Below, piece after piece: positions 210-30,150 of a stretch of DNA of 35,444 nt. This DNA is from an uncultured Planctomycetales bacterium (lineage in GTDB: Bacteria; Planctomycetota; UBA1135). The notes under the pieces were generated by a model that saw nothing but the letters and a program-made list of their open reading frames with translations, did no database searches and was not told the origin of the DNA. The number at the start of each line of letters is the position of its first letter. Positions within the stretch are counted from its first letter, which is position 1. Both the position numbers and the translations under genes were made by a program. The DNA lies in contig CAZJGH010000002.1 of NCBI GenBank assembly GCA_964545405.1, positions 1-35,444 on the forward strand, read 5' to 3'.

Positions 210-869
210 CTACCACTTCCATTTCTTCCATAGCTTCTTGTACTCCTTATCGCCGAGCTTCCAGCCATCGGCCCAGAGCTCGAACGTTTTATACTTCTCA
301 AGCGCTTTCTTATCGATACCTAAACTCTTAGCGGATTCATGCCACTCCTCCATCTTGGCCTGCATGTTCCATTCGAAGCCTTCGATCAAGAAGGTGTCAT
401 CGATAAGGTCGACAGTGATGGTGAATATCTCGTCTGACTTCTTCGAGTTCCACCAGACGGTGTGGATCTTCTCTGCCTTCTTCTGCTGCTTCTTCAGCAA
501 CTTGTCGTAGCCTACTTTTTCGTACCACGCCTCCACCGGGGCTACTCCACGGTAATCGTCACGAGCAGCCACCAATAAACCTAGAGGCTTATTTTTTGCG
601 AGCACCAGCTTCTTGCCGTAAGCCTTGCTCAACTCTTTCACAACTTTATCGCCCTGTTTCTCGATGGCTGCGACCAACGAAGCTGCATCCTTGGCAACAC
701 CGGGCGATACATCTTTCAAGGCACGCTCACCACCAGGCATCAAGCGCTGTGCCACCTGATAACTCAACGTAAGGGCGGGGCTGATTTCATACTGATAGGA
801 GTCGGGCCCCTTCTGCATGGCTAACTGTTGCGCCATGCGCAAAACGGTGGCCGCATCGCTGCTGGTCAT
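210..869 (-). CDS. hypothetical protein with Lys/Trp-rich C-terminus (KEYKKLWKKWKW); no family recognised
   Basis: 219-codon ORF. Its ATG overlaps the TGA of the upstream esterase gene (ATGA at 866-869). It ends at TAG 210-212, followed by GAT TAA. It looks more A/T-rich than its neighbours. Confidence 0.55.
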   Translation of the reverse strand: MTSSDAATVLRMAQQLAMQKGPDSYQYEISPALTLSYQVAQRLMPGGERALKDVSPGVAKDAASLVAAIEKQGDKVVKELSKAYGKKLVLAKNKPLGLLVAARDDYRGVAPVEAWYEKVGYDKLLKKQQKKAEKIHTVWWNSKKSDEIFTITVDLIDDTFLIEGFEWNMQAKMEEWHESAKSLGIDKKALEKYKTFELWADGWKLGDKEYKKLWKKWKW

Positions 870-1654
870 GCCTTCGCACCAATCGTGCCTTCGGTGACGC
901 GCGTTGAGTTCGGCCAGTGGTTGTAACCAGGCAGACGCAACAAGGCAACCAGATCCAAACCTTTGCCGTCCAGGTACTCGCGCCCGCCGACGGACTGGCG
1001 GTAAGGCACTACCGGATCCTTGGTGCCGTGCAGGAACAACACCGGCACGTCCTTCATCTTGCGACTGATTTCACTCCAACTCCAAACCCCACTGGCATGG
1101 GCAACCACCCCGCCGAGCATCTCTGGATGCTCTCCAGCAAAGTGCACTACGAAAAAGGAACCTTGGCTATGACCGTATAGGAAAACCTGGTCCACGGAGA
1201 ACCGCTCACGCATCTCCACCAAGAAATCGCGGAAGCTCTCGACGTCGTCTTTCTCCCCCAAGAACAAGCGCGTACCATTTGCGCCAGGGCTGGTGCCGTC
1301 GACCGAAATCAAAATATCGTTGCTACGTAGCGGATTCAGCTTCATGTGATGTTCGGTGAAGTTATTGAAATAACCCCAACGGTAATCGCCACCTGTGCCG
1401 TGCAAAATAACTGTCATTTGCCGAGGCTGCTCTGCGGAATACCCTTCCGGCAGTTGCTACATGTAGCGCAGGTCCCCTGCGGACTTACTCCAATAAGCTG
1501 TTGATGTTTTTGCAGCAGGACTTGGTGCAAGAAATTCCGGCCCGTCTTCCGCTTGAGGCGCAAAGGGCGTGAGAAGCAGTAAGGAAGCAAATAGGAGCAT
1601 TTCCCGATTAATGAAGAAAGAAAACAGAACAGCACGCAACGCGAGCCTTCGCAT
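866..1654 (-). CDS. secreted alpha/beta-hydrolase (carboxylesterase / PHB-depolymerase-like) interrupted by one in-frame TAG at 1457-1459; a pseudogene under code 11 unless TAG is read through
   Basis: ORF 1457-1654 has a signal-peptide-like N-terminus (MRRLALRAVLFSFF...LLLLTPFAPQA). ORF 866-1417 has VILHGTGGD, a GHSQG nucleophile elbow and LHGTKD. The two share one frame. The codons between TAG and the internal ATG read QLPEGYSAEQPRQ, the usual 'LP.GY....P..V.LHG' lead-in of this fold. Confidence 0.6.
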
Positions 1655-1829: not shown

Positions 1830-3545
1830 TCACGGCTTGCTTGTCCAAACAACAGCCCCACCGAATAGCGTGATGACCGGTGCGCAGTTGCGCAACTGAT
1901 CTACCGGAACCGTCATGAGGTCGTCGGAAAAGACCACTAGGTCAGCACGGTATCCTGGAGTTAAACGACCGAGGTCGTGTTCACGGAATGCCGCGTAAGC
2001 CGGCCAGGTCGTCAGCATGTCAAGTGCCTCTTGACGCTGGAGCTGCTGCTCTGGATACCATCCACCATCAGGTTCGCCGTCGCGAGTCGCGCGAGTCACC
2101 GCCGCGATGAACAAGGCGACGGAGTCGAGTCGTTCGACCGGAGCGTCGGAACCTCCTGGGATGATGCAGCCTGCATCACGGAAGCTACGCCATGCATACG
2201 CACCGCGAACGCGTTCGGCTCCGAGTCGGTGCTCTGCCCAGGGCATATCACTGGTTTGGTGTTGCGCTTGCATCGCAGGAATAACTCCGAGAGTGGCGAA
2301 GCGTTCGAAATCGTCGGGGTGCACGACTTGTGCATGCTCGATGCGACACCGCAGGTCGAGTCCCGTCTCAGCCGAGCCCCTTGCCCCTAGTGCCTGCTCA
2401 TATACATCCAAGGCGGTCCTGTTACCGCGATCGCCGATGGCGTGAATCGCGACCTGAAAGCCAGCTTCGGCCGCATCCTTGACGATGCCATGCATGTCTT
2501 CCGGAGAAGTCAGCATCAATCCGATGTTGCCGTGGTCGTCGGAATATTCGTCGAGCAAGGCCGCGCCGCGTGAACCAAGAGCACCATCCGCATAGAGCTT
2601 CACTGACCTGATCGCGAGGGTGCCAGTAGCGCCGACGTCGGCTTGCGGGCCAGCTGCGAACCGACGTTCAAGCAGGGATGCATTCGAGCCATCGAGCATC
2701 TCATGCAGGCGCAAGCGTAAACGCCCCTCGGTCGCCATCGATTCGAGCAACGCCAGGGGGCCGGGGCCGATTCCGGCATCATGCACGGCTGTTATGCCTT
2801 GTTCATGCAAGGCCGCAGTAGCCAAACCGACTGCGCGCTCGACCGCCGCCAAAGTGGTTCCTGGCGCGGCGTTGTGTATCAGGCCCTCGGCATTATCGAC
2901 GAACACACCAGTGGGCTCGCCATCCGCATCACGCTCGATGCGGCCGCCTTCGGGATCGGGAGTCGACTTCGTGACGCCCGCAGCATCCATCGCCGCTTGA
3001 TTGGCAAGGATGGCGTGGCCGTCGATGCGCACCAGCACTACCGGACGATCTGGAATCGCGGCACTCAGATCATGATGTGTCGGGAACGACTTCTCTTGCC
3101 AATCATTCTGATCCCAACCGCGCCCCTGAATCCACTCGCCGGCAGGCAACTCCTCATGACGCTGTCGTGCCAACTCGACCACCTGCTGATATGAAGTAGT
3201 ACCGACCAGATCCAGCCCTTCAAGCGCGCTACCCAAACCTACAAGGTGGGCGTGTCCATCGGCGAAGCCTGGATACACCGGGCGCCCCTCCAAGTCGACC
3301 TTGGTCGTACCTTCCGCTGCCAAGGCCAATATCGCATCGCCTTCGCCGACGGCAAGAACGCGTCCATCAAGTATCGCGATGGCTTCGACGATGCGCTGTG
3401 GTTCATCCTGGGTGTATATGCGCCCGTTAAACAGCACCACGTCGGGAGGTGTGTCGGGTGTGGCATCGCCACCGCAGGATCCGAGAGCAGAAGTGAGGAC
3501 AAGCATCAAGAGGGTGCTCTTCAACATGAAGTATGATGGCAGCAT
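1830..3545 (-). CDS. amidohydrolase-3 family metal-dependent hydrolase (YtcJ-like), probable lipoprotein
   Basis: 571-codon ORF ending TGA. It has a GFADGHAHL metal-binding H-x-H motif and later HAIGD and GSDAP motifs. The N-terminus MLKSTLLMLVLTSALGSCGG has an L-G-S-C lipobox, so the true start is probably the ATG at 3525-3527 rather than 3543-3545. Confidence 0.8.
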   Translation of the reverse strand: MLPSYFMLKSTLLMLVLTSALGSCGGDATPDTPPDVVLFNGRIYTQDEPQRIVEAIAILDGRVLAVGEGDAILALAAEGTTKVDLEGRPVYPGFADGHAHLVGLGSALEGLDLVGTTSYQQVVELARQRHEELPAGEWIQGRGWDQNDWQEKSFPTHHDLSAAIPDRPVVLVRIDGHAILANQAAMDAAGVTKSTPDPEGGRIERDADGEPTGVFVDNAEGLIHNAAPGTTLAAVERAVGLATAALHEQGITAVHDAGIGPGPLALLESMATEGRLRLRLHEMLDGSNASLLERRFAAGPQADVGATGTLAIRSVKLYADGALGSRGAALLDEYSDDHGNIGLMLTSPEDMHGIVKDAAEAGFQVAIHAIGDRGNRTALDVYEQALGARGSAETGLDLRCRIEHAQVVHPDDFERFATLGVIPAMQAQHQTSDMPWAEHRLGAERVRGAYAWRSFRDAGCIIPGGSDAPVERLDSVALFIAAVTRATRDGEPDGGWYPEQQLQRQEALDMLTTWPAYAAFREHDLGRLTPGYRADLVVFSDDLMTVPVDQLRNCAPVITLFGGAVVWTSKP

Positions 3546-4737
3546 GTCATCCTTCTCTCAATACCTGTTCGTCGTTGCTGCCCTGGCGGCCACCAGCGTC
3601 ACCGCTGGAGCCCAGGAGCCGATTGAGGAGGCAGTCCCCGCGGCACCGCTCATTCAGCCTGGAGAACGTGCTGTCCCTGCACAGCCTGGAATGCGCGCAG
3701 TACCCGCGATGCCACTCATGCAGCCTGCGCAGACCAATGACGCCAGCGCCATCTCAGCCGATGCCGCGGCTTACGCTGGACTCAAGGCCGAATACGACTA
3801 GGTCTATTCCGCTTGGGTCAGCGAGATCATCGCCCTCGGCAAGCAAGAAGGGTTCGCAGGACCTTACCCGGAGGACCCTACCGGTGGTTTCTACCCAAGG
3901 TTCCGCACGGTTGCAGATACTGGCAACATCGATGCACGACTGTGGTGCCTGAAGAACTTCCACTACGACCCGACTCCGAGCAAGTATCGGAAACTCTGTT
4001 GGCAGGGTGAAGCCTTCAGCTTGGCCACCGCGTTGCGCGATGACGCCGATGGCAGTGCCAGACTGAGGCAGTCACTCCATTCGGGCCGAATGGTCGGCGG
4101 CGACAGGACCGTGGATAAGGTCCTGGTCTATATCCAGGAAACGACGGGGAGTGATGATGTGCGTCGCGCGACGATGGCCGCCCGCAGTGAACCCATGCTT
4201 GATCCGAATACCGAGTCGTTCCATGTAGGTCTCGAATTGGCAGAGGAAGTGATCGCTACTTGGCCAGACAGCGACGAGGCCGCACGCCTTGAAGGTCTGC
4301 TCAATGCACAGGACAACCTGAAGGTCGGTGGGACTCCTGCCGACTTCACTGGCACCGACGTCGATGGCAAGGAGATCAGTCTCTACGACTATCGTGGCAA
4401 GGTGGTGATCGTCGACTTCTGGGGCTTCTGGTGAGGCCCTTGCAAAGGTGAGCTCCCTCACCTCAAGGCGCTGGTCGAGCGCCACTCTGCAGAAGACTTC
4501 GCGATCCTTGGTATCAACACTGACGGAGACAAGGACAAGTTCCGTAAGGACTGTGAGAAGTTCGGTGTGACCTGGGACAACATCTTCAACGGCTCTACGC
4601 GTGGTGGTGTGCCAGGCGCTTGGGGCGTGACCGGATACCCGACCATGTACATCCTCGATCGTGATGGGGTCATCCGCTACATTGATGCTCGTGGGGAACG
4701 CCTGGAGAAGGTCGTCGATGGGCTCGTCGCCGAATAA
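3544..4737 (+). CDS. secreted TlpA/ResA-like thioredoxin-fold thiol:disulfide oxidoreductase. The frame contains an in-frame TAG (3799-3801) and an in-frame TGA (4432-4434) at the first Cys position of CxxC (candidate selenocysteine)
   Basis: One frame reads MSSFSQYLFVVAALAATSVTAGAQEP (signal peptide) ...LKAEYD-TAG-VYSAWVSEIIALGKQ...GKVVIVDFWGFW-TGA-GPCKGELPHLKAL...ILGINTDGD...GYPTMYILDRDGVIRYIDARG... up to TAA 4735-4737. No ATG/GTG/TTG lies in frame between 3802 and 4020, although that stretch has coding-like GC3. The ORF-track pieces are 3301-3801 and 4021-4434. Confidence 0.65.
4438..4468 (+). promoter_or_regulatory. stem-loop immediately 3' of the in-frame TGA; candidate bacterial SECIS element
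   Basis: CCTTG-caaa-GGTGAG-ctcc-CTCACC-t-CAAGG. That is a 6 bp perfect upper stem (4447-4452 / 4457-4462) and a 5 bp lower stem (4438-4442 / 4464-4468). The apical loop lies about 20 nt after the TGA. The CUCC loop lacks the G usual in bSECIS loops. Confidence 0.4.
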
Positions 4738-4924
4738 GAGGGGCTCCTTCCTCGTGAACGGTGTGATCGCCGCGGTTGTCCTGTTCTACGTCCTGCGCTT
4801 GAGTGCTGGCGACCGTCACCTGATCGACTGGATCGTGATCGCCCTAGTAAGTAGCGCGATCCTCTACAACGTGGTCAAGTTCGGCATGGCCCTTCAAGGC
4901 GCGGGCACCAGCGAAGAAGAGTAG
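4718..4924 (+). CDS. small two-helix membrane protein, hypothetical
   Basis: ATG 4718 gives MGSSPNKRGSFLVNGVIAAVVLFYVLRL...WIVIALVSSAILYNVV... with two hydrophobic spans and strong GC3 bias. It overlaps the 3' end of the TlpA-like gene by 20 nt and ends at TAG 4922-4924. Confidence 0.45.
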   Translation: MGSSPNKRGSFLVNGVIAAVVLFYVLRLSAGDRHLIDWIVIALVSSAILYNVVKFGMALQGAGTSEEE

Positions 4925-23319: not shown

Positions 23320-24486
23320 TTGGATTCACAACACCGCGCCTGGGCGGAGATCGATCTCGGAGCTTTCCGCCGTAACCTCAAGCGGGTCCGCTTGCAGGCC
23401 GGAAAGGCTTCGGTCTGGCCGGTACTGAAGGCCAACGCCTACGGCCATGGGGCGGTCGCCATCGCCCGTACCTGCGCGGAAGAAGGGGTCGAACGTTTAG
23501 GGGTCGGTGATAGCAGTGAAGCAATGCAACTGCGTTACAGCGGCGTAGATCTGCCCTTGCTCGTGCTTGGAACCGTGATCGACGCTGAAGTTCCCTACCT
23601 TCTTGAGCATGAGGTTGAAGTTGGGGTCCATTCGGAAAGCCGGGTCCACAAGCTGGGAACCTTGGCGCGTGAACACGGCAAGGTACTAGGTGTGCACTTG
23701 AAGGTCGATACAGGTCTCGGAAGGCTTGGTGTACGACCTGAAGCTGTTCTCAGGGTCGCGCGTGCGATCGCTGCCGAACCTGGCCTGCAGTTACGTGGGT
23801 TGATGACCCATTTCGCCAACAGCCAAGGGGCACGCAGTGGCTACACCGATGGCCAGCAGGCATTGTTCCTGGCAGCTGCAGCTGAAGTCAGCGATGCACT
23901 CGGTCAACGCCCGACCCTGCATTGTTCAAACTCAGCCGCATTGTTCACCGGGCTACACCCGGTCGGCGACGCTGTGCGCCCAGGGATATCCTTGTTTGGG
24001 ATTCAGCCGCAGGATATCGGCGGCGACGCTGGTCTAGAGCCGGTGTTGTAGCTTCGCACCCAGATCGTCTTCATCAAGGACGTACCGACCGGCACTCCGA
24101 TCGGCTACGACGGGAGATGGACTTCGCATCTGCCCACCACTCGCGTGGCAACCCTTCCGATTGGCTACAACGATGGCGTGCCTTATCGGATCGGCTTGGG
24201 CGGCAACGGCCAGGTATTGGTACGCGGACAAAGATGTCCGTTGATCGGGGCTGTTTCGATGGACTATTGCACCGTCGACATCTCTCATGTCACTGACGCC
24301 GACATCGGCGACGTCGTGACCCTGATCGGAGCGGATGGGCGCGAGCGCCTTAGCGCCTGCGATGTGGCTCGTGTCGCTGGCACTATCCCATACGAGATCA
24401 CCTGCCGCCTAGGATCCCGCGTGAAGCGCTGTTATCTGGAAGAAAGTCCCAACCGCACCTCGCCTTCACCCGTCATTCCAACATGA
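23320..24486 (+). CDS. alr: alanine racemase interrupted by one in-frame TAG at 24049-24051; a pseudogene under code 11 unless TAG is read through
   Basis: The N-terminal barrel carries WAEIDLGAF and the PLP-lysine motif VLKANAYGHGA. After LEPVL-TAG the same frame continues LRTQIVFIKDVPTGTPIGYDGRW...ATLPIGYNDGVPYR...GAVSMDY, which is the C-terminal beta domain. TTG start. The TGA overlaps the next ATG (ATGA). Confidence 0.8.
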
Positions 24487-29620: not shown

Positions 29621-29985
29621 TGAGTGTCGTCTGGGCGGCCGCGGGTGGTTTCGTGCCACACGAGGAAAGTCCGGGCTCCATAGGGCGCGATGGTGGCTAA
29701 CTGCCACCGAAGGAAACTTCAGGGAAAGTGCCACAGAAAGCAAACCGCCTAAGCGTTTCGGCGCCGGTAAGGGTGAAAGGGTGAGGTAAGAGCTCACCGC
29801 GCGCTTGGTGACAAGCGTGGCAGGGTAAACCCCATCTGGAGAAAGTTCATGTAGGGAGGATAGGTGCGGCCCGCATCGCTTGAACCTCCGGGTAGAACGT
29901 TCGAGGCCTGTGGCAACGCAGGCCCTAGAGAAATGGTCGCTGCCTTTTCGAAGGTACAAGATCCGGCTTATAGGACGACACTCAC
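29621..29985 (+). ncRNA. rnpB: RNase P RNA, bacterial type A
   Basis: P1 pairing GAGTGTCGTC (29622-29631) with GACGACACTC (29975-29984). Universal P4 strands GAGGAAAGTCCGGGCTCC (29662-29679) and ACAAGATCCGGCTTATAGG. Also ACAGAAAGCAAACCGCC, GGTAAGGGTGAAAGGGTGAGGTAAGAGCTCACC and GGGTAAACCCCA. TACAAT at 29610-29615 is a possible -10 element, and a T5 run follows the 3' end. Confidence 0.95.
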
Positions 29986-30150
29986 TTTTTCTCCGACAGA
30001 CGCGGCAACTATTGCATCAGCCTAAGCCACTCGCGTTGACCATCAACATGACACCACAATATCTTGTGCCCAAAATGCAGTCCTAGTTTTCAACAATTCC
30101 CCAACATCTGGTAGTTTTCACTTGCCAGAATCCCAAATATCGGCAGAATC

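Follow-up and report, generated by a model that had tools for sequence, protein, structure and literature searches.

The question raised by this locus is whether the product of a single bacterial gene can depend on the decoding of two different stop codons. Within the analyzed DNA, a complete Planctomycetales contig of 35,444 nt in the NCBI records which is referred to in its entirety as the window, a TlpA-like redox gene is interrupted in frame by a TAG as well as by a TGA. Both stops were evaluated in terms of the coding signal around them, their conservation in relatives, their occurrence in other assemblies and the usage of TAG throughout the window.

Architecture of the interrupted gene

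As delimited by translation, Pfam and syntenic orthologues, the whole interrupted gene extends over 3526..4737 of the plus strand, to which the coordinates of all its parts refer, and comprises 403 codons including the TAG and the selenocysteine (Sec) TGA. Its in-frame translation reads MKYDGSM...AAYAGLKAEYD*VYSAWVSEIIALGKQEGFAGPYPEDPTGGFYPRF...DFWGFW*GPCKGELPH...LVAE*, the stops being an amber codon TAG at 3799-3801 (codon 92), a TGA at 4432-4434 and the terminator TAA at 4735-4737. The stretch from TAG to TGA accounts for 210 codons, from VYSAWVSEIIALGKQEGF... to ...VIVDFWGFW; past the TGA, the frame continues with GPCKGELPH... and then 100 more codons to the TAA. The encoded parts are, in this order, a signal peptide, a Pro/Ala linker, an all-alpha N-domain and a ResA/TlpA-type thioredoxin fold with a U-x-x-C motif.

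The predicted Sec-type signal peptide (MKYDGSMSSFSQYLFVVAALAATSVTAGA / QEP; 3526..3612) was recognized by inspection, its hydrophobic core leading into an A-x-A-like site. The orthologues have equivalent N-termini, and those of the wider family likewise appear hydrophobic with an A-x-A-like site, both judged by inspection only. The Pro/Ala-rich linker (3613..3798), differing in length between orthologues, contains the three AVPA-x-P repeats pointed out in the preliminary description of this DNA, namely AVPAAP, AVPAQP, and AVPAMP, and includes at its end the onset of the first conserved helix (L..EYD). Behind the TAG follows the N-domain (3802..4317), an all-alpha helical-repeat domain of nine helices in the AlphaFold2 model; for the product of 3802-4431, pLDDT was above 90 over most of residues 30-170. 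The ~170 residues between linker and redox domain matched no Pfam family, and a fold search against the PDB gave weak TPR-like matches only, none of them at E <= 0.001.

The thioredoxin-fold (AhpC-TSA/Redoxin) domain was located at 4339..4683 (Pfam residues 272-386). On the gene product, Pfam assigned AhpC-TSA (1.8e-19; 70.4 bits, cut-off 26) and Redoxin (2.4e-15; 57 bits) to residues 272-391, a range in which Thioredoxin_8 was placed as well, and these redox domains span the UGA position. The best NCBIfam matches were ResA and TlpA, both remaining under their equivalog cut-offs, and no NCBIfam model reaches its cut-off for the family characterized by the FW-U-GPC motif. Of the features by which TlpA/ResA proteins are recognized, a thioredoxin fold of the AhpC-TSA/Redoxin type with a C-x-x-C-type motif is found. 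Assigned from predicted features, the gene product would best be explained as an exported ResA/TlpA-like thiol:disulfide oxidoreductase in which an active-site Cys is replaced by Sec.

The 73 codons following the TAG (3802..4020) are devoid of ATG, GTG, and TTG, the earliest possible start being the TTG at 4021, and still encode N-domain residues such as ARLWCL and WQGEAFSLATA. The coding bias claimed for them in the preliminary description was recovered in a likelihood analysis of codon usage, which gave +0.20 bits/codon for the gene frame vs. -0.36 and -0.40 for the other two plus frames. This value lies inside the range of 73-codon windows of the other genes of the window (0.30 +/- 0.18), and the gene frame ranked first in four out of four segments of the gene. 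The coding signal is thus not lost in 3802-4020, and 22 invariant residues of the homologue alignment fall within this stretch. An exact look-up of the product of the TTG-4021 open reading frame (ORF), as well as of the amidohydrolase, retrieved no match. Since the part downstream of the TAG is equipped with neither start codon nor leader, the full-length product would require decoding of UAG and UGA on one mRNA, as had been stated beforehand.

Several features were recorded alongside. When extended to their longest ORFs, the selenoprotein gene and the divergently oriented Amidohydro_3 gene (minus strand, ATG at 3545) overlap by 20 nt at their starts (3526-3545), the JGI call of the latter being six codons shorter. 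Directly downstream of the selenoprotein gene lies a small hydrophobic ORF with GTG start (4754-4924, plus strand, 56 aa), which was also called by JGI in the contigs L082 and L084; at the corresponding site, the loci L009 and L010 contain short ORFs. Farther away, at 29623-29986, a bacterial RNase P RNA of class A (298 bits) is located between ruvX and a 214-aa ORF.

The TGA as a conserved selenocysteine codon

The family comparison covered 78 loci, mostly from Planctomycetota metagenome-assembled genomes (MAGs) and a few from Armatimonadota. The codon following DFWGFW (4432..4434 in the window gene) is TGA in 74 of them and a Cys codon (TGC/TGT) in the remaining four, resulting in the redox motif U/C-G-P-C. 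All database homologues had been ended by gene callers at ...DFWGFW, while their loci translate on through the TGA to GPC and a complete thioredoxin fold. Among the 70 family sequences not running off a contig end, 60 encode 100-119 codons of thioredoxin fold past the TGA.

A candidate bacterial SECIS hairpin (AGGUGAG-CUCC-CUCACCU, 4446..4463, -9.5 kcal/mol) starts 14 nt after the U of the UGA. Hairpins of -5 kcal/mol or better, located 9-36 nt after this U, were found in 57 out of 62 distinct family sequences, with a mean of -9.2 kcal/mol compared with -5.8 for shuffles. Stem sequences vary while pairing is kept (GUGAG/CUCAC, GUGCG/CGCAC, GUGGC/GCCAC, GGGGG/CCCCC). Because the register of this hairpin differs between subfamilies, it was missed by the RNAalifold consensus, in place of which per-sequence folding was used. 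The loop of the window hairpin, CUCC, is without the usual G, and the corresponding 66-nt stretch of the window reaches a z-score of only -1.5. RNAalifold revealed a second conserved hairpin with a GGUC-containing loop (GGCGCU-GGUCG-AGCGCC, 4467..4483), the helix of which is kept in 14-15 of 16 sequences with two compensatory pairs, a pattern confounded by the conserved KALVER peptide encoded there. The genes selA, selB, selC, and selD were not found within the 35-kb window.

As predicted from this sequence comparison, TGA 4432 is a standard, conserved case of bacterial selenocysteine recoding in a U-x-x-C motif; the UGA is programmed and ancient. The family is often multi-copy, with two copies per locus in L020, L022, L038, and L048. 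In each of these, two FW-U-xxC selenoprotein paralogues lie inside one 8-kb locus, and the paralogues there include a short form that has ~90-115 codons before Sec, starts with a signal peptide of its own and shows the motif FW-U-SAC.

Authenticity of the amber codon

The in-frame TAG at 3799-3801, on which the preliminary description was built, is found in the translation and in four further contigs. The 91-aa product that the TAG terminates is encoded in exactly this form on L082 (JGI 3300009008), L084 (JGI 3300008954), L083 (ENA SAMN10231912), and L085 (ENA SAMN10231914). These contigs are 99.93-99.97% identical to the window with zero differences inside the gene, all reading GAC TAG GTC, and stem from two separate assembly efforts, JGI and ENA, covering at least two BioSamples besides that of the window, which itself is 100% identical to contigs from SAMN10231913. 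A protein search returned no intact allele of the TlpA-like gene; the same search did return one for the alanine racemase gene alr.

Recurring in identical form on these four contigs, the TAG has to be more than an accidental artefact. The idea of an intact gene with a sense codon at this position, the TAG stemming from sequencing or assembly, could draw on doubtful spots of the assembly and on a TAG in alr, which occurs only in the window's own sample and within a cluster of three differences. Given the identical TAG on the JGI and ENA contigs, with no difference across the whole gene, we regard this idea as hardly credible. A systematic base-calling error caused by a motif shared around the three in-frame TAGs of the window (GACTAGGTC, TGTAGC) was considered and dismissed, as no common motif exists and the TAG of the tlpA-like gene is reproduced across assemblies. 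The TAG at 3799-3801 is genuine and present in every contig recovered from this population.

The sole population variant seen in the gene, a T>P change, comes from one contig of 856 nt. With a diversity among the contigs below 0.1%, clonal descent instead of selection may account for all copies having the TAG.

The amber position in relatives

Eight homologues (43-61% identity, including one from a Planctomycetes MAG) share the entire architecture, and their loci are syntenic with the window, showing the order Amidohydro_3 (divergent), this gene, Sacchrp_dh, DUF4185, and Amidohydro_1. In agreement with the earlier reading of the downstream part as leaderless, the homologues are continuous across the TAG position with equivalent N-termini, and none of the homologues and family members compared begins downstream of it with its own leader. 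The position of the TAG is occupied by Ala in six of the eight homologues, by Thr in one and by Arg in one; distant family members have Asp or Ala there, with the L..EY(D)-x-AY..W helix around it being the same. In the five orthologous loci that were translated in full, the frame is uninterrupted at this position, the Sec TGA being the sole in-frame stop. UAG was absent from this position in all eight homologues and in the distant members examined, i.e., the conservation expected for a pyrrolysine codon is not found. The residue concerned is variable and non-catalytic and is situated in a helix far from the redox site. Given sense codons in all orthologues, the TAG at 3799-3801 is lineage-specific.

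A local double frameshift instead of a stop was ruled out by the equal alignment length on both sides (EYD*VYSAW vs. EYNAEYSAW). A search for closer relatives that could reveal the ancestral codon, conducted in GTDB genomes and JGI metagenomes, gave none above ~55-61% amino-acid identity.

These homologues also bear on a split product, re-initiated at TTG 4021 or ATG 4090, which would lack a leader and stay in the cytoplasm as a redox selenoprotein. In its favor, neither the thioredoxin domain nor the Sec codon is damaged, and gene callers do call the ORF from ATG 4090 (4090..4434). Re-initiation would, however, cost the product 73-96 conserved N-domain codons, among them those for the invariant motifs ARLWCL and WQGEAFSLATA, as well as the predicted signal peptide that all family members have. 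Moreover, no homologue begins there, and the restart site is 220-290 nt away from the stop, making this explanation very improbable.

A second family member carries an in-frame TAG of its own. It is encoded at L036:2329-2331 on contig CAZSCC010000388.1 of an unrelated Planctomycetales MAG, 23 codons before the Sec TGA (…DFEAKD*DGKAFKLSDYRGK…), at a position held by an invariant Val in the clade of the window gene.

Further lesions within the window

Two other genes of the window are affected by in-frame TAGs. The first is an alpha/beta-hydrolase gene (~210-1654, minus strand), located 2 kb upstream of the TlpA-like gene and forming one 402-residue protein in relatives. Its lesions are a TGG>TAG change at 1457-1459, by which a conserved Trp is lost, and a 1-nt deletion near 887/888. 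Both are common to L082, and the TAG is also present in L083; L082 adds a CAA>TAA change at 1163-1165 inside the G-H-S-Q-G nucleophile motif. The hydrolase gene is unambiguously a fixed, decaying multi-lesion pseudogene, the lesions of which are not all TAG. The population therefore carries decaying genes, and not only amber lesions.

The second is alr (23320-24486) with an in-frame TAG at 24049-24051. At this site the JGI contigs L087 and L088 read TCG (Ser) and encode a full-length Alr of 388 residues, in line with Ser in all close relatives; the TAG allele was detected only in sample SAMN10231913 (window and L086). Compared with L087/L088, the window exhibits three clustered G:C>T:A differences at 24036, 24050, and 24054 (within 19 bp). 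The alr TAG is sample-specific, being either a minor allele or a low-coverage error, and is therefore no evidence for recoding. Comparison of assemblies across samples in this way separates real nonsense alleles (tlpA-like gene, hydrolase) from sample-specific ones (alr) without the need for reads.

A second cluster of differences in this part of the window, four within 31 bp vs. L087 (21732-21762; T/C, G/C, G/C, G/C), coincides with the 3' end of a small histone-like gene rich in Lys and Ala, which is encoded on the minus strand. The spectrum of differences is odd, with JGI having C at 10 out of 11 sites at which window and JGI disagree in that part of the contig.

TAG usage and the case for UAG decoding

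TAG ends 8 of the 28 window genes (29%) and 24 of the 70 family genes. In the DUF4185 gene, the conserved C-terminus ...LTWQ is followed by TAG, and its orthologues end there in TAG or TAA. Readthrough of several TAG terminators of the window would fuse the next genes, adding 375, 248, and 557 extra codons. In total, only three in-frame TAGs were encountered in ~10,000 codons of the window, one of them in the frameshifted gene and one sample-specific. TAG is thereby shown to be a working normal terminator in this genome, and a global, code-15-like reassignment was rejected on the basis of this usage and the conserved C-termini.

Programmed or otherwise efficient UAG decoding, mediated by a suppressor tRNA, pyrrolysine machinery or a weak RF1, would yield the full-length exported selenoprotein. 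Compatible with it are the otherwise intact gene with all invariant residues kept, the presence of the TAG in all five assemblies, the additional in-frame TAGs at 1457-1459 and 24049-24051 as well as in L036, and the existence of organisms using both Sec and pyrrolysine (Pyl) among marine Deltaproteobacteria (PMC8318568). On the other hand, no orthologue has a TAG at this variable, non-catalytic position, and TAG ends 29% of the window genes, several of which would be fused upon readthrough. Furthermore, the hydrolase TAG is accompanied by a frameshift, plus a TAA in one contig, and the alr TAG is missing from the sister samples, which have TCG. Neither tRNA genes nor pyl-like Pfam matches were found in the 35-kb window, and a full-text literature search for pyrrolysine use in Planctomycetes found no report. 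The testable features of Pyl recoding or TAG reassignment all failed, TAG being unconserved in orthologues and undepleted as terminator. Altogether, we consider such efficient decoding unlikely.

The accumulation of three TAGs could itself be taken as the sign of a special mechanism, an idea that was rejected. Random single-base nonsense changes on the codon usage of the window result in TAG in 53% of the cases, so that repeated TAGs need no special explanation; at this frequency, the probability of three out of three is ~0.15, and a TAA lesion is also found in L082.

A related reading, in which UAG is decoded at a useful rate through a suppressor or Pyl-type tRNA or a weak RF1, so that the amber codon is tolerated and one mRNA needs both UAG and UGA recoding, appears unlikely as well. 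If true, the in-frame TAGs of the hydrolase, of alr (in one sample) and of L036 would add to the indications that Planctomycetota decode UAG ambiguously. Dual recoding of UAG and UGA has no positive support in our data, and the implication of the preliminary description that the UAG is a second programmed bypass found no support, with a UAG unique to one population, at a variable residue, in a genome that uses TAG as normal terminator, and next to a pseudogene.

A probable young nonsense lesion in a selenoprotein gene

Apart from the TAG and the Sec TGA, the reading frame of the TlpA-like gene is free of premature stops, and frameshifts are absent as well. At otherwise invariant columns of the alignment, it has four private substitutions, all conservative; seven were counted in another homologue. 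Compared with the outgroup pair, the gene shows an identity of 0.43 vs. 0.42 for the sister homologues, i.e., its divergence is not raised. In terms of stops, frameshifts, divergence and coding potential, no relaxed constraint was detected downstream of the TAG. As the gene is otherwise intact, the lesion appears to be young. The lesion-free remainder fits a very recent mutation, and it is equally what a functional read-through gene would show.

Taken together, a nonsense mutation to amber has probably struck this ResA/TlpA-like selenoprotein gene only recently, turning it into a very young pseudogene for which termination and loss of function are presumed. In the intact gene, Sec would be read from TGA 4432 with the help of the downstream hairpin. 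A single amber mutation would then have arisen at codon 92 in the planctomycete population, upon which translation would end at the TAG, with a signal peptide and linker of 91 residues being released. Except for a trace from basal near-cognate readthrough, no redox domain would be made, and the exported selenoprotein would be lost. With the family being often multi-copy, the loss of one copy is plausibly tolerable, and it would be in keeping with the decay of the neighboring hydrolase gene. Dual recoding would have been remarkable; since the evidence points to an ordinary young pseudogene, the TAG as such matters little.

Comparison with known systems

The interrupted gene resembles ordinary bacterial nonsense pseudogenes in having a single premature stop at a codon that is sense in orthologues, and in its neighborhood to a gene with multiple lesions. 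It differs from them by the lack of a second lesion and of detectable relaxed constraint, its loss of function being presumed.

To our knowledge, organisms with both Sec and Pyl are the only natural precedent for the proposed double decoding of UAG and UGA. In marine Deltaproteobacteria of this kind, described in 2021, UGA and UAG are both decoded as amino acids, with UAG residing at conserved positions of methylamine methyltransferases in a genome with pyl genes (PMC8318568). In contrast, the UAG of the window is unique to one population, affects a variable residue of an unrelated protein, and belongs to a genome in which TAG is a common terminator.

The closest likeness is to the thioredoxin-fold selenoproteins, of which a "Prx-like thiol:disulfide oxidoreductase" and a "thiol:disulfide interchange protein" are known bacterial families (Zhang et al. 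2006, PMC1794560). As in these and in the ResA-like WAxxUGC family of NCBIfam (NF041054), Sec encoded by UGA takes the place of the first Cys of C-x-x-C within a ResA/TlpA/AhpC-TSA fold, Cys homologues exist, and a hairpin follows the UGA. Unlike them, the window gene has the FW-U-GPC motif, a predicted signal peptide, a Pfam-less helical-repeat domain of ~170 residues, and the premature TAG. It is part of a large ResA/TlpA-like FW-U-GPC selenoprotein family (loci L001-L075), mostly from Planctomycetota, the public entries of which stop at the Sec codon and are either Pfam-less or named "hypothetical protein". The gene is thus a new, as yet unannotated member of the thioredoxin-fold selenoproteins, distinguished by its FW-U-GPC motif together with the helical N-domain.
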